Assembly (NCBI GenBank): GCA_963718515.1
Contig: OY970354.1
Span: 758,808-822,807 of the forward strand
DNA from: an uncultured bacterium
GTDB lineage: Bacteria > Patescibacteriota > Minisyncoccia > UBA6257 > 2-01-FULL-56-20
Direction: 5' to 3'
DNA length: 64,000 nt
The notes under the pieces are model-generated. The model saw nothing but the letters and a program-made list of their open reading frames with translations. It searched no databases and was not told the origin of the DNA. The position numbers and the translations under genes were made by a program. Below are positions 3,619 through 52,197 of the stretch, piece by piece. Position 1 is the stretch's first letter, and each line of letters starts with the position of its first letter.

Positions 3619-5349
3619 CTAATTGACGCTCACGTGGATCTTATTGGGATCCGTGGGGATGTTCCACAGCCATGAAGGCCACACCGAGATCTCGCCGTCC
3701 GAGAGATTGGGCAATGCGGAGATGGTGCCGCGCGCCGCCGAGATGCTCTGGCCTTCGATGCTCGTCACGAAATCCGCAGTGGTGAATGCCGGTTCCAAAC
3801 TCGCCTGCGCGGAAAGAGCGAACGACACCTTCCCCGTCGTGAAGTTGGCGGTGACGGCGCTGTAGCTCAGCGTGATCGATTTGAATGTGGAACTTGCTTC
3901 CGTCGACTGCGCGAGCGTGAGCAGATAATCCTTGAGCGCCGACTCGTCGAACCCGATCGCGGTGAGCGTCGCCTGTCCGAAAACGGTGAAGTTGCCGTTC
4001 GCGTCGGTCGACGTGTTGACGGTAAGTTTGCTCACGCTCGTCGTCGCCGCGCCATCAAGGATCGTGAAATTATTTGGATAATTTCCGGAGAAGCCGCCCT
4101 GCAATGATGCGGCGAGGAGCGCGGTCGTCGACGCCTTTGCGGCGGCAATGTCCGCGGCGGTGGGCGTGGCGCGCTCGCCGATGAAGCCGCCGGTCGTGGA
4201 TGCATTGATCACGCCGTAGAATCCAGCCTCGCGCCCCGGGTCATTATCGAATCCCGGAATAGTGAGTTTTGAAACGGGTCCGATATTATAGTCCGGCCCC
4301 GCCTGGTCGGCGACGACCTGCGCGGTGATCGATGATGGAGTGAGCGCGCCGTTCACGCTCGTCTCCCCGGGCACGGTCACGTCGCTCACGATCCGGAAGA
4401 TCTGCCCGCCGGGGGTGAGGAAGCGGGTCGTCGCCACGAGCTCCTGCGACGCCGCGCTGTAGTCGTTATATATAGTGATGGTGCCCTGCGCTTTTTGCGA
4501 AACCTGTTGCACGAGCGACCCCGGGAATGATTCTGTGACGTTCTTACTTGATGTAAATACCTGCGCAGGGATCACGTTGCTCGCGGGATCGATCCCGACG
4601 GCAGTTTTTTCCGCGGCGAAGTTTTCCTGATAGCTCCACGGGGTCTGCGTGAAGTTGATCGTGATGTCGGCGTGATCAAAAAATGCGGTCACGACGTAGA
4701 GTCCGATTGCACCGATAATGACGACGCCTATGATCGCCCAGATGACCTTACCAAAAGATCCGCGTCCATCACTATCATCCCCTTCATCCACGTCCGGCGC
4801 GGCGTCAAAGAACCGGTCACGAATGGGCGCGGCCTTCTTTTCTTCGGGATCATTTTCTGCTTCTTCCTCAAACGCCGCTTCCTCGTCTTCTGCTTCCGCC
4901 GCACGCTCCGCTTTTTTATGGCGCTTGCCTGCGGTAGCGGATATCCCGGCTCCCGCTATGGTGACAGGAATTTTCTTGCCGCGGCGCGGCGCTTCTTCCG
5001 GTTCATCATCGGCATCGTGGTCTACGCTATGAGTATCGGCATCAGCCGCGGCATGACGCGGGACAATATCGGAAAAACCGCCGGTGCCGCGGACGCCTTT
5101 CCATAATGGATGGCTTGACTCGATGCCGCCCTCCTTGGCAAACGCAAGGATCGTGTCGTCCACGGACTCGACGACAATACTGCGCCCGGCGGAATCCGCT
5201 TCGCGCCTTAAGAGATGGAAATTGCTGACCGACCTGCCAAGGACGGATCCCTTCGGGATGACGATGGAGACCTCATGGTCCGGCTCGTTCAACATGCGGT
5301 CGATGACCTCCGCGATCCCCTCTGTCTTATCGACAATGATCTTTTTCAT
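3619..5349 (-). CDS. Hypothetical single-pass membrane protein with a large extracytoplasmic domain
   Basis: The 576-aa ORF is intact. It has a small cytoplasmic N-domain, an acidic/charged linker, one TM helix (VIWAIIGVVIIGAIGLYVVTAFF), and then about 350 aa rich in Thr/Ser/Ala. I do not recognise a family. Confidence 0.6.
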   Translation of the reverse strand: MKKIIVDKTEGIAEVIDRMLNEPDHEVSIVIPKGSVLGRSVSNFHLLRREADSAGRSIVVESVDDTILAFAKEGGIESSHPLWKGVRGTGGFSDIVPRHAAADADTHSVDHDADDEPEEAPRRGKKIPVTIAGAGISATAGKRHKKAERAAEAEDEEAAFEEEAENDPEEKKAAPIRDRFFDAAPDVDEGDDSDGRGSFGKVIWAIIGVVIIGAIGLYVVTAFFDHADITINFTQTPWSYQENFAAEKTAVGIDPASNVIPAQVFTSSKNVTESFPGSLVQQVSQKAQGTITIYNDYSAASQELVATTRFLTPGGQIFRIVSDVTVPGETSVNGALTPSSITAQVVADQAGPDYNIGPVSKLTIPGFDNDPGREAGFYGVINASTTGGFIGERATPTAADIAAAKASTTALLAASLQGGFSGNYPNNFTILDGAATTSVSKLTVNTSTDANGNFTVFGQATLTAIGFDESALKDYLLTLAQSTEASSTFKSITLSYSAVTANFTTGKVSFALSAQASLEPAFTTADFVTSIEGQSISAARGTISALPNLSDGEISVWPSWLWNIPTDPNKIHVSVN

Positions 5350-40521: not shown

Positions 40522-41205
40522 CTACAGCCCCAACGCTTTTTGCGCGATAGCCCAGACCTTCTCGTGCACCTCTTCGATCGAGAGCAAGCGTCCGCTCTCC
40601 ATGCATTCCACTACGGTAAAATCTTTCGGGAATAATTCCGCGATCTGCAAATATACCTTTTCCGTCTTTTCAAGATAAGCGATATCCGCCTCGTGGATAT
40701 CCTTTTTTTGTGGCGCGGTTTCCTGTGCCGCTCTCTTTTTACGCAACTCCAACGCTATCGCCGCGGGCACGTGGAGAATGATATTGAGATCGGGCTTTGG
40801 GATCTTTAGCATTCCGTATTCAATATCGTAAAGCCATTTAAAAAATTTCATACGCTCGGCTTCGTCATCTATCTTTGATCCTTGATGCCCCATATTGGAT
40901 CCGACGAAGCGATCCAGAATCACCGTGTCTCCCGCTTCCAGCCATTTCGAAAGGCGCTTTACGCTTGCATCAAACCTGTCCATCGCATAAAAAAGTGATG
41001 CCTCATAGGGGCCGATATCCGCCAGCGTGCCATAATTTCCCGCAAGGTATTCCCGCACAAAATACGACGACGGTTCTTCGTATTGGGGAAAATGCGTGGT
41101 CTGCAACACCATCCCGCTTGGGATCCTTGCGATCAACCGCTTGAACTGCTCGCTCTTGCCGGAACCATCCGGCCCTTCGATGACGATGAATGTGCCTCTG
41201 TTCAT
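40522..41205 (-). CDS. tmk: Thymidylate (dTMP) kinase
   Basis: FIVIEGPDGSGKSEQFKRL contains the P-loop. A DRF motif (ILDRFVGSNMGHQ) and a lid region are present. Confidence 0.85.
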   Translation of the reverse strand: MNRGTFIVIEGPDGSGKSEQFKRLIARIPSGMVLQTTHFPQYEEPSSYFVREYLAGNYGTLADIGPYEASLFYAMDRFDASVKRLSKWLEAGDTVILDRFVGSNMGHQGSKIDDEAERMKFFKWLYDIEYGMLKIPKPDLNIILHVPAAIALELRKKRAAQETAPQKKDIHEADIAYLEKTEKVYLQIAELFPKDFTVVECMESGRLLSIEEVHEKVWAIAQKALGL

Positions 41206-41237: not shown

Positions 41238-41268
41238 AAAAAAACCGGCGTGCGCCGGTCTTTTCTTT
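41238..41268. terminator. Bidirectional intrinsic terminator between the accessory element and tmk
   Basis: The sequence is AAAAAAA-CCGGC-gtgc-GCCGG-TCTTTTCTTTTT. An A-tract and a T-tract flank a GC hairpin. Confidence 0.6.
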
Positions 41269-41445
41269 TTATCCCACCACCTCGATTCCCATAGTTCTCA
41301 CCGGGGCTCTTATAATTTTTTAAAAAATTAAACAAACCAAGAATATATAAATGTTTTAAGTTACCATTTGAGTATAGCACAGCCCTCCTGGCGTACTAAA
41401 CGTCGGTTGTGTATAAATCCCCTGCTATGACATGCTTGAAAATAA

Positions 41446-42390
41446 CTATTCCCCTCGTAAACTGCGGTAGGCATCTTCCCTGTCTTTTCCGAAAAGCATC
41501 GTATACGGATACGAGCTCTCCACGCGGGCGTGTCCCATCATGCTCGAAATGACAAAATTGTTTGCCTTCTTTTTCGCCAGATCACGCCCGAAGAGATGCC
41601 GGAATGAATGGGCGTTGATGATCGGTAGCTTCGCCCTATTCGAGTATTTGCGGAATAATTCCGCAACATAGCTGACTTGCAATCTTCTTCCCTTAGCGGA
41701 ATGATATGAAGCGTTGCATCCAGCCTTGATCCCAAAAAATAAAGTTTTTGGTTCTTCGAGTTCCGTCGTTGCGATAAACTTCTCTCGACAGGCAACCCAT
41801 TTTTTCAACTGCTCATTCGTTGCATTGCTCCAAAAGATTTCCCGATAAGGCACGACTCCGCGCGATTTTTCCGTTTTGATCCGCGCTGACTTCTTTTCCA
41901 AGTTGAGATCATCCATGTCGAGAGAAATAATTTCGCCGTTTCTCGCTCCCGTGTCATGGATGAGCATGAGGATCGCTTTGTCCCGGACTGCGTAGGTAAT
42001 TTCGCCACACTTCCCCTCATCCTTTACCGCTGCAAGAAGCTGCTCATACTGTTCTTCGGTGGCAACACGCGGAAACTTGAACACCTTACGCGGAACCGGA
42101 ATAAGATCGGGATCGAAGCCGACTTGGATGCGACGCTTGAACATATGTTCGAAAAAGATTTTGATCGCTATCGCTTTCTTTTGCCGAGTGTTGTCGTCGT
42201 ATCCCAACCTCTTCACCAGCGCCAACCAACTCTCACATTCTTCAAGGGTTATTGATTCTACCTCTCGTGCGAGATCCCTTATGTAGAACATGAAATCCGA
42301 AAGATGGACGAAATCCTGTGTAACCGTTTTTGCTTTCCGATTCTGATGGCGAGAACCCAAATACAGGTCTATTGCATCGTTTAGTTTCAT
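41446..42390 (-). CDS. Tyrosine recombinase / phage-type integrase
   Basis: It has an N-terminal SAM-like core-binding domain. The catalytic region includes IHDTGARNGEI, HSFRHLFGRDLA and MMGHARVESSYPY (R..HxxR..Y signature). Confidence 0.85.
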   Translation of the reverse strand: MKLNDAIDLYLGSRHQNRKAKTVTQDFVHLSDFMFYIRDLAREVESITLEECESWLALVKRLGYDDNTRQKKAIAIKIFFEHMFKRRIQVGFDPDLIPVPRKVFKFPRVATEEQYEQLLAAVKDEGKCGEITYAVRDKAILMLIHDTGARNGEIISLDMDDLNLEKKSARIKTEKSRGVVPYREIFWSNATNEQLKKWVACREKFIATTELEEPKTLFFGIKAGCNASYHSAKGRRLQVSYVAELFRKYSNRAKLPIINAHSFRHLFGRDLAKKKANNFVISSMMGHARVESSYPYTMLFGKDREDAYRSLRGE

Positions 42391-42594
42391 TATTTATTTT
42401 ATTTTTTTAACGCAAAAGCCCACCGATGCAACTCAAGTGGGCCTTTAACGGGAGACAATCTTTCGATTGCTCCAGGGCGTAATTTTACTCGAAAAAGAGT
42501 AAAAATACGAGACCCCATTGGTTGCATCACGTCTTTCGACTGATCCCCTTCGGGACAATGGGTTTTATGCTGTTTTGTTCGACCTCGCCGGACT

Positions 42595-42622
42595 ATACGG
42601 CGGTTCGTTTCCGCCGTCCAGT
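42595..42622. repeat. 28-bp direct repeat, copy 1 (contains a 7-bp-stem hairpin)
   Basis: ATACGGCGGTTCGTTTCCGCCGTCCAGT matches 45470..45497 at 27 of 28 positions. Confidence 0.8.
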
Positions 42623-42764
42623 CATGCCATAGCTAAATTGTTTTGAGGTAGGTTTTATAAATGTTTTTTGGGGTTATCAACACATAGGACTTGGATTGCA
42701 CTTGACGCGCCACCTTATACTAAGGGCGTGGAACCGTCCAACGGTTGGACGCCACCAAAAATAC

Positions 42765-43040
42765 ATGACTAACGCGACGACGACATGCAGTTATTCTAAC
42801 CCGATGGTTCTTAATGAAGGGTTATTAAATCTCGCTACTTCGACGGATAGCGGAGCGTTTGAATTTGGTAGCTCAACATGCCTTACCCTTTACGGGCAAA
42901 GCACCTCGACCGATAGTAGTTATTATAATGGCTTCACTTACGGAGAAATCGTGATTTCTGCATTTCTTGTGATTATCCTGTTAATAACGATCCATGCTTT
43001 TTTCTGGTTCAGCGTGAAGGGAATAAAAATCCGGCAATAA
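42765..43040 (+). CDS. Hypothetical small protein with a C-terminal TM helix (91 aa)
   Basis: The ATG at 42765 is preceded by the perfect palindrome GTCCAAC-g-GTTGGAC (42735-42749). The TM helix is IVISAFLVIILLITIHAFFWF. The start is uncertain. Confidence 0.4.
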   Translation: MTNATTTCSYSNPMVLNEGLLNLATSTDSGAFEFGSSTCLTLYGQSTSTDSSYYNGFTYGEIVISAFLVIILLITIHAFFWFSVKGIKIRQ

Positions 43041-43044
43041 AAAT

Positions 43045-43245
43045 TTAATATATTCTTCCGCTCCCCTGCTCTTTAGGAATATTTCCATGATGCTTTTTTC
43101 TATATCCCTTTACACAATCCGCCGAACAAAATCTGCTAGTAATCTGATAACTATTTTTTCTAGGATGATATTCTTTCCTACAATTGTCGCAAATTTTGAT
43201 TATGCTGAGGTCTCGAAATTTAAGGTCATCTTTTTTATTCATCAT
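43045..43245 (-). CDS. Small zinc-ribbon protein (66 aa), translationally coupled to the restriction gene
   Basis: MMNKKDDLKFRDLSIIKICDNCRKEYHPRKNSYQITSRFCSADCVKGY has a CxxC...CxxxC pattern. Its ATG overlaps the REase stop (ATGATGAATAA). Confidence 0.5.
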   Translation of the reverse strand: MMNKKDDLKFRDLSIIKICDNCRKEYHPRKNSYQITSRFCSADCVKGYRKKHHGNIPKEQGSGRIY

Positions 43246-44407
43246 CTTGATCTTGCAACGCCGCTTCCGCATCGGCTTTTTCCCCGTTTTCCAGTAAGAA
43301 TTTTTCGTATGATCCAATTCTCGTAAAATCAATATCATAATGCTCGCTATCAACCTTATAAACAACAGCTGTATCCAGCCCAATGGCCTGTAGCTTCTCA
43401 TAAGTGAGAAGCTCCCCTTCCTTCAAATTCAAAACATCGCGCAAGAGCCATTTGCCTAAAGCCGAATTCGGATTGCTCATGAGGGCTTTTGATCCATCTT
43501 GGCAAACCTTCGCATTTAAAATTTTTCTATCCGGCAGAAGAAGCTCGAAAGGAGCGTCGCGCTTTGGGAAAAACTTTGGAAATTTGTTGTGAATCCACGC
43601 CGGTATCGGAATGTATATTTCGTTCGGAGTGCGCGCGCGACCGCCAGCGTTCCATTGGTTAAGACCGCTTTTTTCTGGAACGTGCTTGAAGCCTCCACGA
43701 AGCGAATACAACGGAAGAAATACGTGAGGGCGAACCTCCTTGATCGGGGCAAATATGAGCTTGTCTTCTCCGATAAGCTTTTCTATCTCGCTAAAAGGAT
43801 CGTCAAGAATTCTAACAGGGACGTCGAGCAAGATTTTTTCCGTTACAAAGCGCTTATAAAGCGTGCTTTTAGTAACGTTGAAAGAATACTCCGCCGAAGG
43901 ATCGGAAAATTGGATCGTGTTGCCATTAACTTTTATGCTCTTAATGGCGTCGATTTTTATTAATGGCGCTGGAGTCTCGTACACGATAACCTTGCCAACT
44001 CGTCGGGTTACGCAGTGGTAGATCATTTCCTCAAGGCCGAATATCCTCTTAGTGGTTTCTATCCGTTCATTTCTAAGCTCGGCAATTTTCTGTATTTTCT
44101 CTTCCGGCGCGAGAGCGCGAAACAAGGCATGATCGCCGTTGAATTCAGCCACTTTTTGCATACTTTTGCCATTTCCTTCGAGGAAGGTCTTTATACCAAA
44201 GCCGATCTTGTCCTTTGAGGCATCGGCCGAAGCATCCGAACGTGAAAGGTTTTCAGCCTCGAAAGCCTTACAAAAAAGATTTTCTGTTGCCCGATATGCT
44301 AGGTAGGGTTCGGGCGCTTCCGAAAAAAGTTTCGACAACGAACCGACCGCCTTAAGCAGTCGTTCGTAATAAAGTACCTGCTCTTTGGGTTGATTCTCTA
44401 TGAACAT
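43235..44407 (-). CDS. Putative type II restriction endonuclease (family not determined)
   Basis: The 390-aa ORF overlaps the 3' end of the upstream m5C MTase gene by 56 nt on the same strand. I saw no other recognisable enzymatic motif. The context implies the R subunit. Confidence 0.6.
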   Translation of the reverse strand: MFIENQPKEQVLYYERLLKAVGSLSKLFSEAPEPYLAYRATENLFCKAFEAENLSRSDASADASKDKIGFGIKTFLEGNGKSMQKVAEFNGDHALFRALAPEEKIQKIAELRNERIETTKRIFGLEEMIYHCVTRRVGKVIVYETPAPLIKIDAIKSIKVNGNTIQFSDPSAEYSFNVTKSTLYKRFVTEKILLDVPVRILDDPFSEIEKLIGEDKLIFAPIKEVRPHVFLPLYSLRGGFKHVPEKSGLNQWNAGGRARTPNEIYIPIPAWIHNKFPKFFPKRDAPFELLLPDRKILNAKVCQDGSKALMSNPNSALGKWLLRDVLNLKEGELLTYEKLQAIGLDTAVVYKVDSEHYDIDFTRIGSYEKFLLENGEKADAEAALQDQDDE

Positions 44408-45362
44408 CTGGTTTCGTCTCTAGAGCTTTTTTTATCTGACGAGCTACGCGCTCGATAACCGCAACCGTTACAGAGTTCCCAAACTGCTTATACAGCTTTG
44501 TATCTGGGAGGTCCTTTGGTAGTTTATAGCTTTCGGGGAATCCCTGCAATCGCGCGCACTCCCTCGGAGTTAATTTTCTGATCCCATTCTTGTCCAAGAT
44601 GAGAGGGACGTTATGTCCGCCCGTCCCCATGTTTGCGGTGAGCGTGGGGCATACTCCGCTCTTGTTCGCCCGAACATATACGCGACGCCACTGATAAACC
44701 GTGTCATAGGATTTTATTGTCTTCTTCAATTCCTTATAAAGCGGTGAATTGGTGTAATAATATTTTTCGTCCACCTTTTTTTCCAACATGTCGGCGACGG
44801 TTTTGGTAAGAGGGATTGGATCGGGGAATTTGAAGGCGTTATAAGCCGTAAGCGATTTAAAACCGACAATATAAATCCTCTCTCTGTTTTGTGGGACGTT
44901 TCCATATTCGGCGCTGTTAAGCACTTGAGCCTTCACGTGATAACCGAGATCTTCCAAAGCTTCCGAGATTATGCCAAAGGTCCGGCCGTGGTCGTGGGTC
45001 TTTAAATTTTTTACGTTCTCCAAGAAAACAGCCTCTGGTTTTTTATCTTTTAAAATTCTGATGATCTCATAAAATAAATCTCCCCGGCCAGTATCAAGAA
45101 AACCGCGACGGTATCCAGCGATCGAAAATGGTTGGCACGGAAAACCACCTAGGAGGAGATTGAAGCTTGGCAAAGAAGAACTCTTTACCTTCGCAACATC
45201 GGCGATTGTCAAAGGGGTGGAATTAAAATTAAGATCGTACGTTGGCTTGCAGTAAGGATCAAAGTCGTTTGCGAAAACCGTCTCAAAGCCGGCGCGCTCA
45301 AAGCCGATCCTAATACCCCCTACTCCTGCGAATAAATCTATTGTTTTGAGATGGTCGTTCAT
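44352..45362 (-). CDS. DNA (cytosine-5)-methyltransferase (R-M partner)
   Basis: Motif I is DLFAGVGGIRIGF, motif IV is GGFPCQPFSIAG, motif VI is LENVKNL, motif VIII is QNRERIYIVG, and motif X is QFGNSVTVAVI. Confidence 0.95.
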   Translation of the reverse strand: MNDHLKTIDLFAGVGGIRIGFERAGFETVFANDFDPYCKPTYDLNFNSTPLTIADVAKVKSSSLPSFNLLLGGFPCQPFSIAGYRRGFLDTGRGDLFYEIIRILKDKKPEAVFLENVKNLKTHDHGRTFGIISEALEDLGYHVKAQVLNSAEYGNVPQNRERIYIVGFKSLTAYNAFKFPDPIPLTKTVADMLEKKVDEKYYYTNSPLYKELKKTIKSYDTVYQWRRVYVRANKSGVCPTLTANMGTGGHNVPLILDKNGIRKLTPRECARLQGFPESYKLPKDLPDTKLYKQFGNSVTVAVIERVARQIKKALETKPDVHRESTQRAGTLLRTTA

Positions 45363-45469
45363 ACCCTAATTGTACACCCTGATCGTTATATTTGCAGCCC
45401 CTTTTTTTGGGCATAACTTAGCCCATCATTTCGAGCCACGCGGTACAAGGCTTTTTCGATTACCACACC

Positions 45470-45497
45470 ATACGGCGGTTTGTTTCCGCCGTCCAGT
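45470..45497. repeat. 28-bp direct repeat, copy 2
   Basis: ATACGGCGGTTTGTTTCCGCCGTCCAGT lies upstream of the MTase gene. Together with copy 1 it brackets the R-M module. Confidence 0.8.
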
Positions 45498-45503
45498 AGT
45501 GGT

Positions 45504-45773
45504 CTATTTCCTCTCTTTTCGTCGGATGATTATGAAGTGATCTTGAAGATGAAGCAGATCGCCCGTAAGATTCTTTAAAATCTCCAGTTCGACCTCTTTG
45601 GTTGCGACCCCCTGTCTCAACATATCTAAAATTGTTGCCAACGTACCGAAATAATCCCCCTGCTCGATATGGAACTCTAACGATTTTATTCTTTTTTTCA
45701 TTCCCCTATCGTAGCATCTCAACATTAAAAAATTATTAAATGATTTTCCCATCTTGTCCGAAGGCGCCTGCAA
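45504..45773 (-). CDS. Hypothetical small protein (start uncertain; possibly M25 at 45701)
   Basis: The ORF is intact and helical (LEFHIEQGDYFGTLATILDMLRQGVATKEVELEILKNL). It is divergent from the 45812 ORF. Confidence 0.4.
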   Translation of the reverse strand: MQAPSDKMGKSFNNFLMLRCYDRGMKKRIKSLEFHIEQGDYFGTLATILDMLRQGVATKEVELEILKNLTGDLLHLQDHFIIIRRKERK

Positions 45774-45811
45774 AATTTGATTATCATTCCCTCAAGTTAT
45801 AAACTTCGCTT

Positions 45812-46135
45812 ATGCGCCTCCCTCAAAAAGATGAAGAAAAGGAACGTTTTAAGCGAATATTTGCCGACGAGCTTTTGGAATACCATTTTGAGCGGGTAGT
45901 CGGAAAAAACGAGAACAACGAAAAGCAATGGCGAGTGCTTTTGGATGAAAGAGTGGAACCGCACGCTCAAATTTTATGCGATATTTCACAATGGCTTCTT
46001 GATCGAGGGTGGAGCAAGGAAGTTGTAGAAGAATTATTTTTTGTTGCCGTCCAAGAAGATGACAGGCCAAAAAATTCCGACAAGGGCAAAAAGTCGGGCA
46101 AGCTCCGATCACTTTTCCGATCCCTTAAACCATAG
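45812..46135 (+). CDS. Hypothetical protein (107 aa)
   Basis: The ORF is intact and is one of only two plus-strand ORFs in the element. It has a Lys-rich C-terminus. Its 3' end overlaps the convergent MTase gene by 11 nt. Confidence 0.4.
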   Translation: MRLPQKDEEKERFKRIFADELLEYHFERVVGKNENNEKQWRVLLDERVEPHAQILCDISQWLLDRGWSKEVVEELFFVAVQEDDRPKNSDKGKKSGKLRSLFRSLKP

Positions 46136-47114
46136 TTCTTTTTATTGCTCTCAAGACTTCCGTCGCAACCTGCGGGACAATGGCATTGCCAAGTGATTTA
46201 AGACGTTCTATCCGATGTTGCTTCGCGGTAAGCTCACGTCCGTCCAACCTTCCGGGAAGCCCATCATCCACTCGACAAAGCTCGGTTGCAACCTCAAGCC
46301 AGTCGTACCCTGCACCACTTCCCCAAAATTGGACTTTCCCCGATCCGTAAGTCCAGCCCTGCTGTCCTGCGCCTTCGGAGTGGGCAGAATTTCGTATATA
46401 CGAGGTATTATCTGCCCAAGACGTGCTCCGTGTCGCACTCCCGTCTTCTTCGACTGTCGGTAAAAGAATCCGTTTTGATAATTCACCGTCTTTGTGTATT
46501 CCCCTCCGACTGCCTCGCTTGCCACGGGTGTCGGCGCCAGCATGGGCGACAATCCAAACCCGATCTCGTCTATGCGGGGCTTGGACACTTGCAGCTGGTA
46601 TAACAAAAACTTGGAAGGTGTAATTTTCTCTTTCCAGGTCAAGTAGCACTTGGTCGAGCGCCAGGTTGATGATTCCAGCAACGTTCTCACCAACAATCCA
46701 ACGGGGTCGCGTTTCTCGTATGATTCTAAGCATTTCTGGCCAGAGGTAACGGTCATCTTGATTGCCTCGTCGCTTCCCGGCAAAACTGAAAGGTTGGCAC
46801 GGGAAACCGCCCGTGAGGAGATCGAGTTGATAGCTTTGGGCAAGTTCATACTGTGCTTGCTTCCCTTCTTCTGCTGAGAGCTTTTGAGATTGGGCGTAAA
46901 GGTGTCCGCTGCGGTCGGCGTCGGCAATAAGTCGTTCGATTGATAGCTCCCTGATGTCGTTATAGATTTTTGCATTTTTAAAGTTTTTTTTAATTACTTG
47001 TTGGCAGAATTCATTGTTATCGCAAAAGCCCACGTTCTCGTACTCCTCGCCCCATACCCATTGCGCCGCGAGTGAGAATCCGCCGATGCCTGAAAATAAG
47101 TCTAGATGTTTCAT
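46125..47114 (-). CDS. Orphan phage-type DNA (cytosine-5)-methyltransferase
   Basis: Motif I is DLFSGIGGFSLAA, motif IV is GGFPCQPFSFAGKRRG, motif VI is GENVAG, motif VIII is APHRRDRVWIVAH, and the C-terminus reads RVDDGLPGRLD...RLKSLGNAIVPQVA. No adjacent nuclease gene is present. Confidence 0.9.
   Translation of the reverse strand: MKHLDLFSGIGGFSLAAQWVWGEEYENVGFCDNNEFCQQVIKKNFKNAKIYNDIRELSIERLIADADRSGHLYAQSQKLSAEEGKQAQYELAQSYQLDLLTGGFPCQPFSFAGKRRGNQDDRYLWPEMLRIIRETRPRWIVGENVAGIINLALDQVLLDLERENYTFQVFVIPAASVQAPHRRDRVWIVAHAGADTRGKRGSRRGIHKDGELSKRILLPTVEEDGSATRSTSWADNTSYIRNSAHSEGAGQQGWTYGSGKVQFWGSGAGYDWLEVATELCRVDDGLPGRLDGRELTAKQHRIERLKSLGNAIVPQVATEVLRAIKRTMV
46208..46975 (-). other. Nested 255-codon ORF in the +1 frame of the orphan MTase gene, itself carrying MTase-TRD-like motifs
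   Basis: The track ORF reads MQKSITTSGSYQSNDLLPTPTAAD...MTVTSGQKC...CYLTWKEKITPSKFLLYQL...ILPTPKAQDSRAG...PSFVEWMMGFPEGWTD. It has no stop for 255 codons and lies fully inside 46125..47114. Confidence 0.35.
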
Positions 47115-47115
47115 A

Positions 47116-47421
47116 TTATTGGAGGTAAAAATAATCTTCTTCGTCGTTGGTAATATTCGTGGGAAGAAACTGCTCTTTGAATATTTGTTTATTCATTCGT
47201 TTTTCTTCCATCCTGTCGAGTATGAATTCAATGGAATTGACCTCTGCCCGTATCAGTATTGGTTGAAATCTATGCTTTATCGGTAGGCAAAAATGCTCCT
47301 CATGCTCTTGCGCGATCGCCGGTTCGACATCAACCTCTTCTGGCACCGGCTTTATATCCTCGGCACTTTCTTGAACCTGCTTTTTTCTGAATAATCTTTT
47401 TAAGAAATCAAAGAAGCGCAT
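47116..47421 (-). CDS. Hypothetical soluble protein (101 aa)
   Basis: The ORF is intact. Its stop lies 1 nt before the MTase ATG, so the genes are operonic. Confidence 0.5.
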   Translation of the reverse strand: MRFFDFLKRLFRKKQVQESAEDIKPVPEEVDVEPAIAQEHEEHFCLPIKHRFQPILIRAEVNSIEFILDRMEEKRMNKQIFKEQFLPTNITNDEEDYFYLQ

Positions 47422-47429
47422 GGTATTGA

Positions 47430-47693
47430 TTAATTGATCCCCGGTATCTTGTTATAAATCCACCGTGCGGCCTTGTAAGTGAAGTATCCCGCTTCGATCG
47501 AGACAATGATGCCAAAGACGATAAAAAGTTCTGGTATGGGTAAAAATAGGTCAAAGAGGGCGAGATAATTACCCGCCTGCGTAAGCGTTCCCGTGAGATT
47601 GACGGATAATGAAGCGACAGGCAAAAGCAAAAGCGGTGCCGTAATGAGCTCCAAGAGATAAATGAAAATCTTAAGTAGCCAGTATACGATCAT
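47430..47693 (-). CDS. Hypothetical polytopic small membrane protein (87 aa, about 3 TM)
   Basis: Three hydrophobic helices are present. The start overlaps the upstream stop by 4 nt (ATGA). Confidence 0.55.
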   Translation of the reverse strand: MIVYWLLKIFIYLLELITAPLLLLPVASLSVNLTGTLTQAGNYLALFDLFLPIPELFIVFGIIVSIEAGYFTYKAARWIYNKIPGIN

Positions 47694-49015
47694 AGGTCTA
47701 TATGTTGAATAAAATAAAATATCCAGAATCCAAGCATAAGAATTAAAAGAAATGAAATACCCGCCTTCAAAGGATCAAGTACCGATGAGAAGGCGGCGTA
47801 GGTTGTTGTCGTGATAAGCGTGCTCGTGTTTGTCCCCTCTTGGAAGTTGGTAAAGGCAGTTGTAATAATCGAAGCGTAACCGAATGGCACGCGTGTCGAG
47901 AGGTTGTCCCATGTGCCATGAAAAGAATCATAAAGATCGTTCTGCTCTGATGAGTTAGGAATAAACATATTGCATCCTGCTTCTTCTATGTTTCCGACCG
48001 GATCGTCTAAGAAGCTCGAAGTGGTATATTGGCAGTCCGCCGCGGTAGATGATGTTTCGCCACCGCCGAAATTAAACATGCCATTGGGGAACGGCGCGAA
48101 CGCGGGCGCGTTGTTGCTCACCGTAAACGTAATAACTGATCCCGTGATATCAAAACCCGTGGAGCTATTCGCCACTTCGATGTCGGCGTACCATACGCTC
48201 GAGCTCGGCCCTTGCGGGGTTGAGAATTGATAGGTTTGAGGGATGGTAAGTTCGGTATCGGTGCCTGCTGGAAGTCCCGAATAGGTCGTTGATGCGGTAA
48301 GACTAAGATTGCCTGGTCCCGTACCAAAGTGAACGGTTACGATGCCATCCTGCGTACTCGTGGAATTGTTTGATAAATAAAAATCCCATTTGGGAAATTG
48401 CCCGATAACCGCACCGTCGAACGGCTGGAGAAATTCGGGTTGCACGGGTTCTTCAACGGAATTAACGTAGAAGGTTTGTGAGTAGTCAGTACTATTCGGC
48501 AATGATTCACTCACGCCACAGGTGTATCCGTTGTAATAAAAAAGCGTGAGGTAGATTGGCGTCGCTTCCGTGATGCCTACCGTGCTTACGAATGAATTGC
48601 TATTAGCGTCCCAGACGGTACTAATGGGGCCGTAGGTATTGCCATATGTCCCTTCGCTTGCTCCGCTGTAAGCGCTACCAAATCCAGGCGCACACGGTCC
48701 TCCTGTGCCTACACCACCATGCGTGAGCACATGGCCACCAGCCGACCATCCGGCGTAGGGGCCGTTATAGCTAAGTTCCGGATCAGTGCTCGTGCCGTTG
48801 ATCGAAACCATGATCCCACCCGGCAAATCATAGCCAAATAACCCAAGTTGGATTTTATGCCACTGAATTTCTAGGTTTCCATTCTGATCGAGAAAGATCG
48901 TGTCGGGCTGAACATATGACGCGGGTGTAGTGATGCTAAACGCGAGCGCATTATGAGATGAGAACGCGAGCGTCCCCATGACCGCAAGAAACCCGATGAG
49001 AATATATTTTTTCAT
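47690..49015 (-). CDS. Secreted protein (441 aa) with a C-terminal TM anchor
   Basis: The signal peptide is MKKYILIGFLAVMGTLAFSSHNALA. A large Ser/Thr/Gly/Asn-rich ectodomain follows. The C-terminus is AAFSSVLDPLKAGISFLLILMLGFWIFYFIQH. Confidence 0.65.
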   Translation of the reverse strand: MKKYILIGFLAVMGTLAFSSHNALAFSITTPASYVQPDTIFLDQNGNLEIQWHKIQLGLFGYDLPGGIMVSINGTSTDPELSYNGPYAGWSAGGHVLTHGGVGTGGPCAPGFGSAYSGASEGTYGNTYGPISTVWDANSNSFVSTVGITEATPIYLTLFYYNGYTCGVSESLPNSTDYSQTFYVNSVEEPVQPEFLQPFDGAVIGQFPKWDFYLSNNSTSTQDGIVTVHFGTGPGNLSLTASTTYSGLPAGTDTELTIPQTYQFSTPQGPSSSVWYADIEVANSSTGFDITGSVITFTVSNNAPAFAPFPNGMFNFGGGETSSTAADCQYTTSSFLDDPVGNIEEAGCNMFIPNSSEQNDLYDSFHGTWDNLSTRVPFGYASIITTAFTNFQEGTNTSTLITTTTYAAFSSVLDPLKAGISFLLILMLGFWIFYFIQHIDL

Positions 49016-49021
49016 GATAGA

Positions 49022-49255
49022 TCATTGTCCGCGATGCCGTATCGCGCCAATTACAAATTCCACGACCACAAGCGCGAGGAGAACGCCGATGATAAGGGTC
49101 GTGTAATTACTTAAGCTACCGAGCAATGCGGTTGCTTGCGTTAAAATATCCGCCGTGAAATTAGTAGGAAGCTCAATCGTGCCGGTAGCCACCTGCGCGA
49201 ATGCAAAGGCGGGAAGAAAAACGATGAATGGAATTGTATATAATATTTTCTTCAT
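49022..49255 (-). CDS. Small secreted coat/pilin-like protein (77 aa) with a hydrophobic C-terminal helix and basic end
   Basis: The sequence is MKKILYTIPFIVFLPAFAFA|QVATGTIELPTNFTADILTQATALLGSLSNYTTLIIGVLLALVVVEFVIGAIRHRGQ. The ATG overlaps the upstream stop (ATGA). The track start at 49297 is rejected. Confidence 0.6.
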   Translation of the reverse strand: MKKILYTIPFIVFLPAFAFAQVATGTIELPTNFTADILTQATALLGSLSNYTTLIIGVLLALVVVEFVIGAIRHRGQ

Positions 49256-49857
49256 TTCTTTTTGTGTTTGTTGAGTGCAACCAATTCTTTTGTCCACCAG
49301 AAAAATAATGGGATCGCCATTGCAACGATAAGGATCGAGAGAAGACCCAAGCCAGCCATAATATTTGAAATGCTCGCAAGAAGATCCACGGTGGTTGAGG
49401 ATGGCAATGCCAAAGCGCCCGGCTCGGCCGCAACGATAGGCGGAGGGGCAAAAAGATTAAACGTGCTTTCGTTGTAATAGCCAGTCCCTTGCCCGATCAT
49501 GTGCAAGCAACTCACGATAGTGCTTCCCGTCAAGCAACTGCCTTGTCCGTTTTCCGCCTGGTTTGTACTGATGATCGTGTAAGTTCCAATACCTGCCGAA
49601 ATAAAACCGAGTTGCGAAGGCGAATAAGTGCCGTCCGCGGAAGGATACGGATAGCCGTGGATTGAATCCGTATCCCCTACAATCATTCCGGCATAATCCA
49701 CCAAGACGACGCGACGGTTATCGTTACTCGTAACTGTAATTTGAAGATCGCTGAAATTTATCGAACTCGCTGGAGAAGTTGAAAGCGCGGCAAAAGCGGG
49801 CAACGCTGAAAGTGCCAAAGGGAAAATTAATGAAATTGTGATAAATAGTTTTTTCAT
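49252..49857 (-). CDS. Secreted protein (201 aa) with a C-terminal anchor paralogous to the coat/pilin-like proteins
   Basis: The signal peptide is MKKLFITISLIFPLALSALPAFA. The C-terminus is LPSSTTVDLLASISNIMAGLGLLSILIVAMAIPLFFWWTKELVALNKHKKK. Confidence 0.65.
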   Translation of the reverse strand: MKKLFITISLIFPLALSALPAFAALSTSPASSINFSDLQITVTSNDNRRVVLVDYAGMIVGDTDSIHGYPYPSADGTYSPSQLGFISAGIGTYTIISTNQAENGQGSCLTGSTIVSCLHMIGQGTGYYNESTFNLFAPPPIVAAEPGALALPSSTTVDLLASISNIMAGLGLLSILIVAMAIPLFFWWTKELVALNKHKKK

Positions 49858-49915
49858 ATCACGGGTGAAGGGACGTTCTCACGACATCCCCTCGCCCGTG
49901 AGATGGGGTGAGAAC

Positions 49916-50185
49916 CTAGCGAGCTGCCCGAGACTTCGGCAAAAGGCCGATGACCTGCTTCGCAAAGTAAAATACCAGCGGAACAGCAGCGGCGATGATG
50001 ACAAGTCCCAAGATGCCCGGATCGGTAAAGATGTTCGATACCGATGCCAAGAGATCGGATACTGTGGACGACGGCACGGTAAGCGAGCCAGCCGGAACAG
50101 TCTGCGCGTGAGCCGCGACCGTCAAAGCCATGCCAACAATCGCGGCGCCTGCGCCAGATACCCACATGGAAATCTTTTTAATCAT
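49916..50185 (-). CDS. Small secreted coat/pilin-like protein (89 aa)
   Basis: The sequence is MIKKISMWVSGAGAAIVGMALTVAAHA|QTVPAGSLTVPSSTVSDLLASVSNIFTDPGILGLVIIAAAVPLVFYFAKQVIGLLPKSRAAR. It has a signal peptide, an amphipathic segment, a hydrophobic core and a basic tail. Confidence 0.65.
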   Translation of the reverse strand: MIKKISMWVSGAGAAIVGMALTVAAHAQTVPAGSLTVPSSTVSDLLASVSNIFTDPGILGLVIIAAAVPLVFYFAKQVIGLLPKSRAAR

Positions 50186-50245
50186 TTTCGTATGAATTGA
50201 GTTATATTTATTCGACCTTTATTTTCCGGAAATTAATTTATATTT

Positions 50246-50371
50246 TTAAAGCCAATTATCTATGAACGTGAATAGGAAGGTGTGAAGGGTTGTGAGACCG
50301 AACAACAGTAAAATCCATGAGGGATTTATCACCTGCGACCATGCTAAAAATATTTGATCGAGTGGTTGCAT
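50246..50371 (-). CDS. Tiny hydrophobic ORF 3 of 3 (41 aa)
   Basis: Manual translation gives MQPLDQIFLAWSQVINPSWILLLFGLTTLHTFLFTFIDNWL*. Its ATG shares one base with the upstream stop (TGATG). Confidence 0.45.
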   Translation of the reverse strand: MQPLDQIFLAWSQVINPSWILLLFGLTTLHTFLFTFIDNWL

Positions 50372-50526
50372 CAGTAATTGAATCCATCATTTTTTATCAC
50401 GACCTTGAGGAACTTATCGCCATTCGGACGATAGAACAGACCAAATATTCCATCGAACATTACCGTGATGCAGAAGTTGAGCATGAGGGTAAAAATGATT
50501 GCGCCGAGAAAATATTGGAATGTCAT
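50371..50526 (-). CDS. Tiny hydrophobic ORF 2 of 3 (51 aa)
   Basis: Manual translation gives MTFQYFLGAIIFTLMLNFCITVMFDGIFGLFYRPNGDKFLKVVIKNDGFNY*. Its ATG overlaps the upstream stop (ATGA). Confidence 0.45.
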   Translation of the reverse strand: MTFQYFLGAIIFTLMLNFCITVMFDGIFGLFYRPNGDKFLKVVIKNDGFNY

Positions 50527-50642
50527 GCTGGTTTGATATGGTTGTTATCGTCTTCATCAGGAACAAATTTGACGATCATAATTTCAACGAAGATCAGCGA
50601 GATCACCCCAGCCCAAAACCCTTGAAAAAAATCCCAGTTCAT
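50523..50642 (-). CDS. Tiny hydrophobic ORF 1 of 3 (39 aa)
   Basis: Manual translation gives MNWDFFQGFWAGVISLIFVEIMIVKFVPDEDDNNHIKPA*. It is the first of three overlapping-coupled ORFs on the element's coding strand. Confidence 0.45.
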   Translation of the reverse strand: MNWDFFQGFWAGVISLIFVEIMIVKFVPDEDDNNHIKPA

Positions 50643-50711
50643 TTTTGTTTGTTAAAAAATTTATCGAGCCAGCTTTTTTTTGGCGGTTGGAATCCGAATG
50701 GGCGCGGACGC

Positions 50712-50933
50712 TTAATCGAAGCCAGGCGCTTTGCAATCCAGTAAAGGATTATGAAACCGAGAATGGTAAGGATGGGTGTCATGGTTAATCTTCTTCGTAT
50801 TCGTTATCATCGTCCTCATCTTCGAGCTCGTCCTCAAAATCAACTTCGTGGCAACGACAATCACAAGTATCGCCGCCGTCGCACCAGTCGCTATGAGAAC
50901 AAATGGAACAAATGACCATGCTTCTATTTTCAT
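50712..50933 (-). CDS. Hypothetical small membrane protein (73 aa); a Cys-rich 44-aa alternative frame exists
   Basis: The TM helix is FVPFVLIATGATAAILVIVVATKLIL. A competing ORF at 50785..50919 reads MVICSICSHSDWCDGGDTCDCRCHEVDFEDELEDEDDDNEYEED*. I cannot tell which frame is used. Confidence 0.35.
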   Translation of the reverse strand: MKIEAWSFVPFVLIATGATAAILVIVVATKLILRTSSKMRTMITNTKKINHDTHPYHSRFHNPLLDCKAPGFD

Positions 50934-50955
50934 GCGACGAGTAAAATGTTTCCTG

Positions 50956-51132
50956 TTCCTATGTGTGCATAACTTGCCGGTGGCGACTTATCCACACATA
51001 GGAATTTGAACCGAAAAGAAAAAGGGGCAAATATACATATAAGCTAAACAGAAAAGAAGACAGAGGAATTACACCAAAACAAGACGGAGGGCAAATCTTA
51101 ATTAATTAAGAAATTAATTATATATTTGCCCC
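50956..51132. promoter_or_regulatory. Non-coding AT-rich region with nested inverted repeats and GGGCAAAT motifs (candidate origin/operator)
   Basis: One 12-bp inverted repeat is TTCCTATGTGTG (50956-50967) / CACACATAGGAA (50993-51004). A second 12-bp inverted repeat is GGGGCAAATATA (51024-51035) / TATATTTGCCCC (51121-51132). A third GGGCAAAT lies at 51089-51096. The palindrome TTAATTAATTAA lies at 51099-51110. Confidence 0.45.
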
Positions 51133-51140
51133 TATCCGAT

Positions 51141-51178
51141 AAAAAAAGAAAATCCGCCGGGCTTGTGAACCGGCGGAT
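51141..51178 (-). terminator. Rho-independent terminator after the 51194..51496 gene
   Basis: ATCCGCCGG-9 nt-CCGGCGGAT forms a 9-bp stem. The preceding AAAAAAAGAAAA on the plus strand gives a U-tract on the minus strand. Confidence 0.65.
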
Positions 51179-51193
51179 CATCCTACGATCGAA

Positions 51194-51496
51194 CTAAAAC
51201 TTAATCCGATAGTACGTTGCTTTTCGGAACAATCCATCTTTATCTCTAAAGGTGGTTGTCCATTGTTCCAAAAATCCTTTTTTCACGAGGGCATTTTTTG
51301 CCGTTCGGATAGCTTTGTAACTTATCCGAAGACGCCATGCCATTTTTTGCATTTCAACTAATTTCGGGACTTTGACGTTCCCAACTTCTTCCATGAAGCA
51401 TTGCAATACTCTCGTTTGACGATCGGTGAGTCGCCTAAGCTCGACGGATCGCGTAGCGTTGCTCGACACTTCGGCGAGAGGGGTAAATCCTTGCAT
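51194..51496 (-). CDS. Putative HTH/winged-helix DNA-binding protein (100 aa)
   Basis: LTDRQTRVLQCFMEE and ISYKAIRTAKNALVKKGFLE resemble an HTH with a following wing. It is the first gene pair at the right end of the element. Confidence 0.5.
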   Translation of the reverse strand: MQGFTPLAEVSSNATRSVELRRLTDRQTRVLQCFMEEVGNVKVPKLVEMQKMAWRLRISYKAIRTAKNALVKKGFLEQWTTTFRDKDGLFRKATYYRIKF

Positions 51497-51644
51497 ATTC
51501 TTTTTGTCTTAATTCCCTCGTGCATTTTTTGCATAGGATCGTTACGAGCTCACTTTCCCGTCCGGGAACCACGCGCTTGCGACAATACTTTTCGCACCGC
51601 ATACAGGTTTCCCAGCGATAGTAGAATTTTGTGTTTCCTTGCAT
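51435..51644 (-). CDS. Small zinc-ribbon protein (69 aa from M17; start uncertain)
   Basis: WETCMRCEKYC...ILCKKCTREL carries two CxxC pairs. The track start at 51692 falls inside the rplK terminator U-tract, so an internal ATG is preferred. The ORF overlaps the next ORF by 62 nt in another frame. Confidence 0.4.
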   Translation of the reverse strand: MQGNTKFYYRWETCMRCEKYCRKRVVPGRESELVTILCKKCTRELRQKEYARIYPSRRSVEQRYAIRRA

Positions 51645-51683
51645 GTCATAAGGGCAGTTATTTTGCCGACCTTTGGATGCAAC

Positions 51684-51709
51684 AAAAAACAACCATTCCT
51701 GGTTGTTTT
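51684..51709. terminator. Bidirectional terminator downstream of rplK
   Basis: The sequence is AAAAAACAACC-attcct-GGTTGTTTT. A- and T-tracts lie on either side. Confidence 0.6.
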
Positions 51710-51771
51710 AGTCGGAGTACCCAATGATAATTTTTGGGAAAACCCCGATTTTCTTAACTTTTTAGATTACG

Positions 51772-52197
51772 TTAGCCCTCAACAGTGATTCCCATATTCT
51801 TTGCGGTGCCCATGATGATGCGTTCGGCGGCTTCCAGGTTGTCAGTGTTGAGGTCGGGAAGTTTGCGCTCTGCGATCTTGCGAATGTCCGCGCGAGTGAC
51901 CTTGCCCACCTTGCCCGTCAGCGGATTGGCGGCGCCCTTCTCGATGCCGGCTGCCTGCTTGAGCAATGCCGACGCCGGAGGCGTCTTCAGGACGAAGCTA
52001 AAGGTACGATCATCGTAGATCGTGATCTTCGCGGGGACGATATCACCCTTCATATCCTTCGTGGCTTCATTGAACTGCTTGCAGAAGTCCTGGATGTTGA
52101 TCTGTTGAGGGCCCAAAGCCGTGCCTACCGGCGGCGCAGGATTAGCCCCGCCCGCGGGAAGTTGAAGCTTCAATACTGTTTTTACTTTCTTTGCCAT
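51772..52197 (-). CDS. rplK: 50S ribosomal protein L11
   Basis: [43 protein letters not shown]... is canonical L11. Confidence 0.95.

Follow-up and report, generated by a model that had tools for sequence, protein, structure and literature searches.

A 64,000-nt stretch of contig OY970354.1 (assembly GCA_963718515.1, positions 758,808 to 822,807; hereafter the window), from an uncultured bacterium of the candidate phyla radiation (CPR), contains a 10,503-bp integrative element (window positions 41284-51796) inserted at the 3′ end of rplK, the gene for ribosomal protein L11, in a Paceibacteria/Minisyncoccia chromosome. That this is a real integrative element at the tmk/rplK locus, as a first-pass annotation of the DNA had proposed, is confirmed by its attachment (att) sites, by empty sites in close relatives and by near-identity between copies from different species. 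The element encodes a co-oriented block of membrane proteins, two of which have homologs on small circles that also encode a P-loop ATPase and, in one case, a G2P-type Rep. On balance, it is probably an active, temperate, site-specific relative of the filamentous phages (inovirus/plectrovirus type), from a previously undescribed lineage and without a Rep or a pI ATPase of its own.

Insertion at the 3′ end of rplK

The GC content is 0.39-0.50 (mostly ~0.45) over 41.0-51.5 kb, against 0.52-0.60 on both sides, a sharp shift already noted in the first-pass annotation, which had placed the ends of the element at 41276 and 51712. These limits are corrected by an imperfect 25-nt direct repeat, found at 41269-41293 and within the last rplK codons at 51772-51796, whose two copies have only the core TATGGGAATC in common; this core delimits the element to 41284-51796. 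The intact rplK ends in …MGITVEG*, supplied by the element, and the left copy of the repeat encodes on the minus strand another L11 C-terminus, …KIIRAPVRTMGIEVVG*, with a terminator and then tmk after it, so that the displaced end …MGIEVVG* adjoins tmk. The features of the insertion, from rplK to tmk, are as follows.

51787-51796, minus strand: attL crossover core TATGGGAATC, within the last rplK codons
51772-51786, minus strand: element-supplied rplK end ACTGTTGAGGGCTAA (TVEG*), downstream of the attL core
41446-42390, minus strand: Xer-like tyrosine integrase, 314 aa, beside attR (PF00589, 6e-23; phrog_1)
41294-41330, minus strand: attP arm on the integrase side, a degenerate mimic of the rplK 3′ end (KIIRAPVRT)
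41284-41293, minus strand: attR crossover core TATGGGAATC; homology with the element of the related contig L082 ends exactly at 41284
41269-41283, minus strand: displaced original rplK 3′ end GAGGTGGTGGGATAA (EVVG*), followed by the old rplK terminator
41244-41259: old rplK terminator, to the left of the element and before tmk

The ends of the window copy predict an attP of the form …GAGCCCCGGTGAGAAC-TATGGGAATC-ACTGTTGAGGGCTAACGTAATC… and allow the reconstruction of attB as …GCAAAGAA-TATGGGAATC-GAGGTGGTGGGATAAAAAG…. The last five rplK codons were exchanged for the element's own copy and, because the crossover lies within TATGGGAATC and the element brings these codons with it, L11 remains intact. 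Insertion through recombination by the Xer-like integrase of attP, with its replacement rplK 3′ end, and an attB inside rplK is well supported by the att repeats, the displaced end, the empty sites, the limits of homology with L082 and the attP junction found in L092 (L numbers designate related sequences, described below). In NCBIfam, the integrase matched XerA, XerC and XerD at ~1e-27, below the cut-offs. Terminators had been proposed on both flanks; the left one stands, as the old terminator of rplK, and the right one is only a weak consensus match.

A tRNA as the target was rejected, since there is no tRNA near the element, as was the inclusion of tmk in the insert, given that rplK and tmk are often neighbors in more distant relatives. 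The tmk gene (40522-41205) is present in the window and in these more distant relatives, and the nearest empty-site relatives (L002-L006) lack it between rplK and cmk, so the rplK-cmk interval is itself variable in the clade. An exact look-up of the Tmk protein retrieved a 1.7-kb contig that ends at 41313, still in element sequence, and is thus not an empty site; an exact look-up of the rplK product retrieved no record.

Relatives at the rplK site and movement between species

Comparison with related genomes, which the first-pass annotation had recommended, was done by scanning species-representative genomes with L11 and comparing the 10-kb flanks; it placed the host among metagenome-assembled genomes of Paceibacteria/Minisyncoccia, in agreement with the CPR host that had been surmised. 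The seven closest relatives (L002-L006, L012 and L025; L11 85-91% identical) have empty sites, in which rpsF-ssb-rplK is followed by cmk-gatB within 0.1-0.7 kb, and this argues for mobility. Several relatives end L11 in …IEV(I/V)G*, like the reconstructed attB (…MGIEVIG* in L006 and …MGIEVVG* in L042). The same genes at the same locus in relatives, regarded beforehand as evidence against a mobile element, were found only patchily: a related gene block lies directly after rplK in other species (L007, L009, L011), element-type sequence follows the rplK stop codon in L008 and L010, whose contigs stop soon after rplK, and further elements occupy the rplK site in L082-L091 (from peat-bog samples), L092, L111, L112 and L119. 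The integrases of L082, L092 (two copies), L112 and L119 share 84-99% identity with that of the window.

L082, one of the contigs encoding an identical 441-aa protein (p441, see below), carries the same element between rplK and cmk in a different host. The host flanks of L082 and of the window are 60-87% identical (rpoBC 87%, rplK ~81%, rpsF 74%, cmk-gatB 70%), whereas the element is 97-100% identical over its core and 93.6% identical at the integrase end; identity rises from ~0.81 to 0.98-1.0 at ~51770, and homology stops exactly at 41284. The att repeat is longer in other hosts (32 nt in L082 and a perfect 25 nt in L112) because their own L11 end resembles the copy in the element. L092 has a tandem pair of related elements at the rplK site, each with a terminal integrase, and the predicted attP junction is matched between them (55/60 nt, at ~7735); the junction also occurs in L093, whose int-attP-hth contig is equally explained by a tandem array. 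Judging from these comparisons, the element has been shown to move between species, to have done so recently, and to be able to stack in tandem.

An interval of ~2.5 kb between rplK and cmk in L014 (7596-10107) starts with element-type sequence after the rplK stop codon (GCTAGCGTAATCTAAAAATCCAG), and tblastn found no element protein in it; it could represent a remnant or some other element.

Gene layout and the membrane-protein block

The gene list of the first-pass annotation (integrase, type II restriction-modification (R-M) module, orphan methyltransferase, small membrane proteins, Zn-ribbon proteins, a helix-turn-helix (HTH) protein and an inverted-repeat-rich non-coding region) holds. From rplK, the conserved order is zn85, hth100, a structured non-coding region, cys44, tm47, tm51, tm41, tm89, p201 (variable), tm91, p441 and tm87, and after these a small acidic protein, the orphan methyltransferase, a variable slot, tm114 on the opposite strand, and the integrase. 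The invariant core comprises the Zn-ribbon and winged-helix genes with the palindromic non-coding region, the membrane operon, and the orphan C5 methyltransferase, and all core open reading frames (ORFs) are intact in ~10 divergent elements. The conserved features between rplK and the integrase are as follows.

51435-51692, minus strand: zn85, small Zn-ribbon protein; start codon uncertain, 69-74 aa conserved
51194-51496, minus strand: hth100, winged-helix DNA-binding protein (LexA_DNA_bind, 0.003, weak; LrpA-type HTH, 0.02)
50934-51193, no strand assigned: conserved structured non-coding region, 260 nt, inverted-repeat-rich; candidate origin and/or operator
50785-50919, minus strand: cys44, Cys-rich, very acidic 44-aa protein, first gene of the membrane operon; conserved in L011, L009 and L092
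50639-50782, minus strand: tm47, very small transmembrane protein
50371-50526, minus strand: tm51, very small transmembrane protein
50246-50371, minus strand: tm41, very small transmembrane protein
49916-50185, minus strand: tm89, signal peptide (AHA|QT) plus 62-aa mature peptide; candidate major coat protein
49252-49857, minus strand: p201, signal peptide and ectodomain; C-terminal module LPSS..DLLAS..TM..basic (TM, transmembrane helix), as in tm89
49022-49297, minus strand: tm91, signal peptide, amphipathic segment, transmembrane helix and short basic tail; coat-like
47690-49015, minus strand: p441, 441 aa; candidate adsorption protein, analogous to pIII
47430-47693, minus strand: tm87, 87 aa, two hydrophobic segments, conserved C-terminus YK..KW.Y.KIPGIN; at the position of inovirus pVI
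47116-47421, minus strand: p101, small acidic soluble protein, conserved in close relatives
46125-47114, minus strand: MT2, core orphan C5 DNA methyltransferase (PF00145, 1e-38; phrog_363, 1.7e-66; TIGR00675)
42696-43040, plus strand: tm114, small protein with a C-terminal transmembrane helix; core gene across the family, including the 2.9-kb circles

The membrane block thus consists of about nine small proteins with signal peptides or transmembrane helices and a 441-aa protein with a signal peptide and a C-terminal anchor, all co-oriented, and not one of its ORFs has a match in Pfam, PHROGs or NCBIfam. A 73-aa ORF at 50712-50933 is probably spurious, the conserved gene at that place being cys44. 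In the mature peptide of tm89, an acidic N-terminal part precedes the transmembrane helix and a tail that ends in KSRAAR, and a common C-terminal design, LP(S/T)..(D)LL…TM…basic, is found in tm89, tm91, p201 and p441. In p441, the signal peptide is followed by a variable beta-sandwich ectodomain, a Gly/Ser linker and a conserved, helical C-terminal domain with a transmembrane helix at its end; the N-terminal part is divergent, and wholly different in L007, and the last 130 residues are highly conserved. An AlphaFold model of p441 built with 19 homologs (pLDDT 57) likewise shows beta-sandwich domains and then an all-helical C-terminal domain with a transmembrane helix.

In agreement with the first-pass annotation, no Rep, ATPase, capsid or terminase gene was detected in the element with Pfam, PHROGs and NCBIfam; no Walker A or HUH motif occurs in any real reading frame of 41.2-51.8 kb, and tblastn of the ATPases from two circular relatives (L106 and L137, see below) gave no match in the window. 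The element is also, as had been noted, unlike a tailed prophage. A conjugative or pilin reading was rejected because the element contains no relaxase, VirB4 or VirD4 and because its signal peptides are of the signal-peptidase-I type (AxA) and not of the prepilin type.

Circular relatives link the block to filamentous phages

A word-indexed search found 25 relatives of p441 and an exhaustive profile search (E≤1e-3) found 577 cluster representatives, without a Pfam domain, indicating a large but unannotated family. Many of its distant members are on small circular molecules. Two of these encode enzymes: a 7,279-bp circle from an IMG/VR viral contig (L106/L138) has a Rep of the ORF2/G2P family (PF23343 REP_ORF2-G2P, 5e-21; phrog_3419, 2e-24) and a 161-aa P-loop ATPase whose Zot-type matches are weak but consistent (Zot, 6e-4; phrog_197 'Zot-like', 1e-4; phrog_20922, 4e-8), and a 6,880-bp circle (L137) has an ATPase homologous to that of L106. 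Both carry homologs of p441 and tm87 side by side. Of the profile and structure searches that had been suggested for the ORFs, hhalign connected these two proteins with the circles (p441 with its circle homolog at 99% probability, E 4e-18; tm87 with an 89-aa protein of L106 at 98.4%, E 7e-15), and Foldseek, applied to p441, retrieved only generic immunoglobulin (Ig)/FN3 folds. L106, with its distant p441 homolog, surfaced in IMG/VR through the tm87 profile only, and was all that this profile retrieved there. The circle L137 also encodes a homolog of hth100 (36% identity, 1e-12).

At least 10 further circles, of 2.9-4.5 kb, contain the membrane block only. L097-L099 are three independent assemblies, identical and circularly permuted, of 4,351 bp after trimming overlaps of 127, 64 and 30 nt, and L096 is a perfect 4,495-bp repeat; circles from the metagenome scan measure 2,911, 3,233, 3,745, 3,894-3,902, 4,135, 4,488 and 5,570 bp. 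The smallest, L130 (2,911 bp), encodes only tm114-, tm41-, tm89-, tm91-, p441- and tm87-like proteins, Zn-ribbon proteins and one more tiny ORF. Likewise, L134/L135 (3,233 bp), L129 (3,745 bp) and L121/L122/L124 (~3.9 kb) resemble L130 in encoding only a p441-like protein and some eight small proteins of the membrane or Zn-ribbon kind, and no recognizable enzyme was found in the complete 2.9-3.9 kb circles. If transmissible, these would be among the smallest DNA elements of such a kind.

The pI morphogenesis ATPase (Zot domain, FtsK-HerA superfamily) is the only marker conserved across all recognized inoviruses, which are further recognized by a G2P-type Rep, many short single-transmembrane proteins and a single coding strand (PMC6813254). 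The element has the co-oriented cluster of 30-90-aa single-transmembrane proteins together with a pIII-like and a pVI-like protein, and lacks the pI ATPase and the gene-II-type HUH Rep, the latter being found only in the distant relative L106/L138. Its gene order and protein design parallel the inovirus order VII/IX-VIII-III-VI, a functional analogy supported by homology to the Rep- and ATPase-bearing circles; it does not amount to membership in the filamentous phages, because searches for the defining pI ATPase and Rep found neither. Both are likewise missing from the rplK-site elements that were read through (L082, L092, L112), from what is sequenced of the other such elements and from the 2.9-4.5 kb circles, and so the window copy is probably not simply broken. 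The label 'defective', which the first-pass annotation had used, is not supported, since this layout without Rep and ATPase is intact in many elements and has recently moved between species.

Nature of the element

We favor the reading of the element as a temperate filamentous-phage relative over its alternatives. Under it, the membrane operon would encode a transmissible particle, with tm89, tm91 and p201 as putative coat subunits, p441 as a pIII-like receptor-binding and terminating protein and tm87 as its pVI-like partner; hth100 would act on the palindromes as a switch and/or at an origin, and the methyltransferase would protect the element DNA in new hosts. Since it has neither Rep nor pI/Zot ATPase, the element would replicate passively in the chromosome, and its amplification and export after excision would have to be provided by enzyme-bearing relatives, acting as helpers or as part of a split genome, or by host functions. 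A broader and decidedly tentative proposal, which we hold to be rather unlikely, is that a whole clade of CPR-infecting filamentous-phage relatives forms transmissible particles without a morphogenesis ATPase or Rep of their own, from 2.9-kb circles with about eight membrane or Zn-ribbon proteins to rplK-integrating forms of 10-13 kb; the missing functions would come from the host machinery or from a separate helper or genome segment, and the integrated forms would shuttle defence systems between Paceibacteria species.

Several results weigh against a kinship with filamentous phages. The marker of all recognized inoviruses, pI, is missing from the element, from the rplK-site elements as far as they were read and from the 2.9-4.5 kb circles. 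On the circles themselves, the Zot match of the L106 ATPase (19.7 bits) falls just under the Pfam cut-off (20.3), and the ATPase of L137 is only a generic P-loop protein. The small proteins of the element did not match any PHROG or Pfam coat family, and, under the positive-inside rule, a signal peptide, a transmembrane helix and a basic tail are expected in any type I membrane protein. With p441, tblastn against GenBank phages found no relative, as did two profile scans of IMG/VR, in which the peptide patterns used were weak; a Foldseek search of its model against BFVD and PDB retrieved only generic Ig/FN3 sandwiches, and with these and a low-confidence model no link between p441 and pIII can be drawn at the level of the fold. 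Lastly, the evidence for the element comes from assembled sequence.

Some of these same results would suit a non-viral integrative genomic island, in which the membrane block is an adhesin or envelope module for an episymbiotic host, spread occurs by natural transformation or by mobilization in trans, and the slot is a defence island. The cargo is mostly defence (R-M, an SMC_N/AAA_15-domain ATPase, a MNT/HepT pair, Fic, and reverse transcriptases of the type of diversity-generating retroelements), transfer and replication enzymes are lacking, and p441 appears adhesin-like, with predicted Ig/FN3-type domains. Nevertheless, we consider such an island unlikely, because the invariant part is the membrane block and not the cargo, and this block exists alone on at least 10 different circles of 2.9-4.5 kb and also in the circles bearing Rep or ATPase; furthermore, every copy has the orphan methyltransferase and the conserved origin-like region, which would be unexpected in an adhesin island. 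The lack of ATPase, Rep and capsid genes could also be explained by a pleomorphic, vesicle-type temperate element, in the manner of plasmaviruses, pleolipoviruses or vesicle-spreading plasmids, with a double-stranded DNA circle in the host membrane that would bud with p441 'spikes' and without a packaging ATPase. The integrated double-stranded form with its own integrase, the size of ~10 kb and the layout of p441, which is that of a spike (signal peptide, ectodomain, C-terminal anchor), fit this alternative, and the first-pass annotation had pointed to plasmaviruses and pleolipoviruses as well as to inoviruses. Of these, the inovirus-like resemblance alone has positive evidence, through the p441 and tm87 homologs on the G2P-Rep and P-loop-ATPase circles: the only enzyme-bearing relatives have a filamentous-phage-type G2P Rep and a Zot-like ATPase and not pleolipovirus genes, hairpin-rich intergenic regions in the style of single-stranded DNA better suit rolling-circle replicons, and nothing in sequence or fold connects the element with plasmavirus or pleolipovirus proteins (no PHROG match for the membrane proteins; only generic Ig/FN3 folds in BFVD), all of which makes the vesicle-type element improbable.

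That the element is a decaying, immobile prophage remnant that lost its former Rep and morphogenesis ATPase would account for the absence of the hallmark enzymes present in its distant relatives L106 and L137. This is, however, a very improbable explanation and close to refuted, given the intact core ORFs in ~10 divergent elements, the two intact att sites, the identity of 97-100% where host flanks are 60-87% identical, and the tandem insertions and exchange of cargo, which show ongoing activity.

Comparison with known systems

Like the filamentous phages (Tubulavirales: Inoviridae, Plectroviridae and the 'cryptic inoviruses' of Roux et al., 2019, PMC6813254), the element has a small genome with its core genes on one strand, and many 30-90-aa single-transmembrane proteins. 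Its pIII-like protein (signal peptide, variable receptor domains, Gly-rich linker, conserved anchor) immediately precedes a small polytopic protein, in the manner of III-VI. Tandem prophages and a temperate lifestyle are further common traits, as is an intergenic region rich in hairpins. Unlike the filamentous phages, the element and its close relatives lack the pI/Zot ATPase and the HUH Rep, and the element uses its own Xer-like integrase at the 3′ end of a protein gene instead of the host XerCD at dif, carries an orphan methyltransferase and several kb of defence cargo, and shows no sequence match to any catalogued inovirus protein family.

The Vibrio cholerae satellites RS1 and TLC-phi are helper-dependent, integrated elements that keep replication genes and lack structural genes. 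The element resembles them in a partial gene set that needs functions in trans and in tandem arrays at one site, but in reverse, as it keeps the structural block and lacks Rep and ATPase. With Acholeplasma phage L2 (Plasmaviridae) and Pleolipoviridae it shares a temperate form of ~10 kb, an integrase, the lack of a capsid gene, an anchored spike-like protein and small membrane proteins, whereas there is no detectable homology and its nearest enzyme-bearing relatives are of filamentous-phage type. As in other elements that target gene 3′ ends (classically tRNA/tmRNA islands and prophages), attP carries a copy of the target end, the gene stays intact, the displaced end is on the far side and the integrase is beside an att site; the target differs in being a ribosomal protein gene, rplK.

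The first-pass annotation had expected such an element to be poorly precedented in CPR bacteria. This does not hold for inoviruses as such, which searches based on pI have already reported in CPR (PMC6813254). In the literature covered, which is incomplete, we found no report of this family, of a pI-less inovirus-like lineage or of rplK as an integration target; as far as found, the form lacking both pI and Rep and the rplK target are thus without precedent. Because the element lacks the replication and assembly enzymes by which such phages are recognized, marker-based virus searches would miss it, and a lineage with structural genes but no pI or Rep is invisible to filamentous-phage catalogues built on the pI marker. 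CPR/Patescibacteria represent a large share of bacterial diversity and very few of their mobile elements are understood; recent movement between species, with swappable defence cargo, is a concrete route of gene flow among these organisms with genomes of ~0.8 Mb. The 2.9-4.5 kb circles raise the testable question of the minimum gene set for a transmissible DNA particle, and the att site at the rplK 3′ end is a simple landmark for finding more such elements.

Structured non-coding regions and repeats

The 260-nt non-coding region between hth100 and cys44 is more strongly conserved than its neighboring genes and, folded as single-stranded DNA, reaches z = -6.4 (0/200 shuffles fold as well). In the family, the region contains, with the invariant palindrome, a further ATTTGCCCC box and a 23-nt hairpin; its features in the window are as follows.

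50956-51004: hairpin
51024-51034: GGGGCAAATAT box
51089-51133: invariant palindrome of ~45 nt (GGGGCAAAT…ATTTGCCCC)
51154-51176: terminator of hth100

A half-site, TTATC(A/C)ACACATAGGA, occurs as an inverted pair at 50956-51004, upstream of the membrane operon, and once at 42674-42695, directly upstream of tm114, an arrangement that an operator for a single regulator, possibly hth100, would be expected to show.

The mini-circles L097 (3850-4270) and L096 (3851-4265) have in common a non-coding region of ~420 nt, 95-97% identical and partly repeated in L096 at 4480-4558; their proteins are only ~35-40% identical and their GC content differs (0.41 against 0.52). This region does not occur in the window. 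It has a strong fold (z = -6.7), and a search of the mini-circles, including it, against Rfam gave no match; it has the appearance of an origin or 'common region' that can be exchanged. Together, it and the invariant palindromic region of the window family fit replicons whose origin is recognized in trans.

The two copies of a 31-nt direct repeat with a CGGCGG…CCGCCG hairpin, D3, are 94% identical. The copy at 42592-42622 separates the integrase from tm114, that at 45467-45497 is in window-specific cargo, just upstream of the R-M methyltransferase, and L082 has a single copy. The idea that D3 marks the att sites of an inner element was set aside for the simpler view that it is a hairpin of terminator type next to the cargo slot; it could represent either a terminator cassette or a hot spot of cargo exchange.

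Orphan methyltransferase and cargo slot

The MT2 gene wholly contains a 255-aa ORF in the +1 frame (46208-46975, minus strand). This alternative frame is open for 229-263 codons in all 11/11 homologs examined and matches a different methyltransferase family (phrog_1008, 4e-36), with motifs LLPTPxxxD and FVEWMMGFPEGW. Across MT2 residues 176-302, diversity by main-frame codon position is 0.34, 0.15 and 0.16; the peak is at position 1, which is position 3 of the alternative frame, and selection over this segment thus follows the alternative frame. MT2 may therefore be a dual-coding or split methyltransferase.

The slot between MT2 and tm114-integrase varies in content from element to element. 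In the window it contains the following.

43045-45362, minus strand: type II R-M module; not present in the near-identical element of L082, whose cargo is different
43045-43401, minus strand: small Zn-ribbon/HNH-like ORF, part of the R-M module
43235-44407, minus strand: NgoFVII-like restriction enzyme (RE_NgoFVII_C C-terminal domain, 5.7e-13)
44352-45362, minus strand: R-M C5 methyltransferase (DNA_methylase, 1.7e-93), overlapping the restriction enzyme gene
45504-45773, minus strand: cargo ORF p89a, with a homolog beside another R-M system in L092
45812-46135, plus strand: cargo ORF p107, small

The restriction endonuclease gene adjoins that of a cognate-type methyltransferase, as in type II R-M systems, and the two are predicted to form one. 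Slots of the L082 type carry PG_binding, DUF3592, PLDc_N and Fic proteins. In L092 (1-19300; JGI Ga0558093_0000012), the first cargo comprises an SMC_N/AAA_15-domain ATPase, an N6/N4 methyltransferase and a Tsp45I restriction enzyme, and the second a trypsin-like protease, Zn-ribbon proteins and a MNT/HepT toxin-antitoxin pair. Parts of diversity-generating retroelements lie in or beside rplK-site elements in L009 (15869-19243) and L007 (12912-13934): in L009, they comprise bAvd, a reverse transcriptase and a target with an FGE-sulfatase/C-type-lectin fold that bears an N-terminal methylation motif of the pilin type; in L007, hth100 and the membrane block are separated by a 340-aa reverse transcriptase, and a sigma-70 region-4 protein follows MT2.

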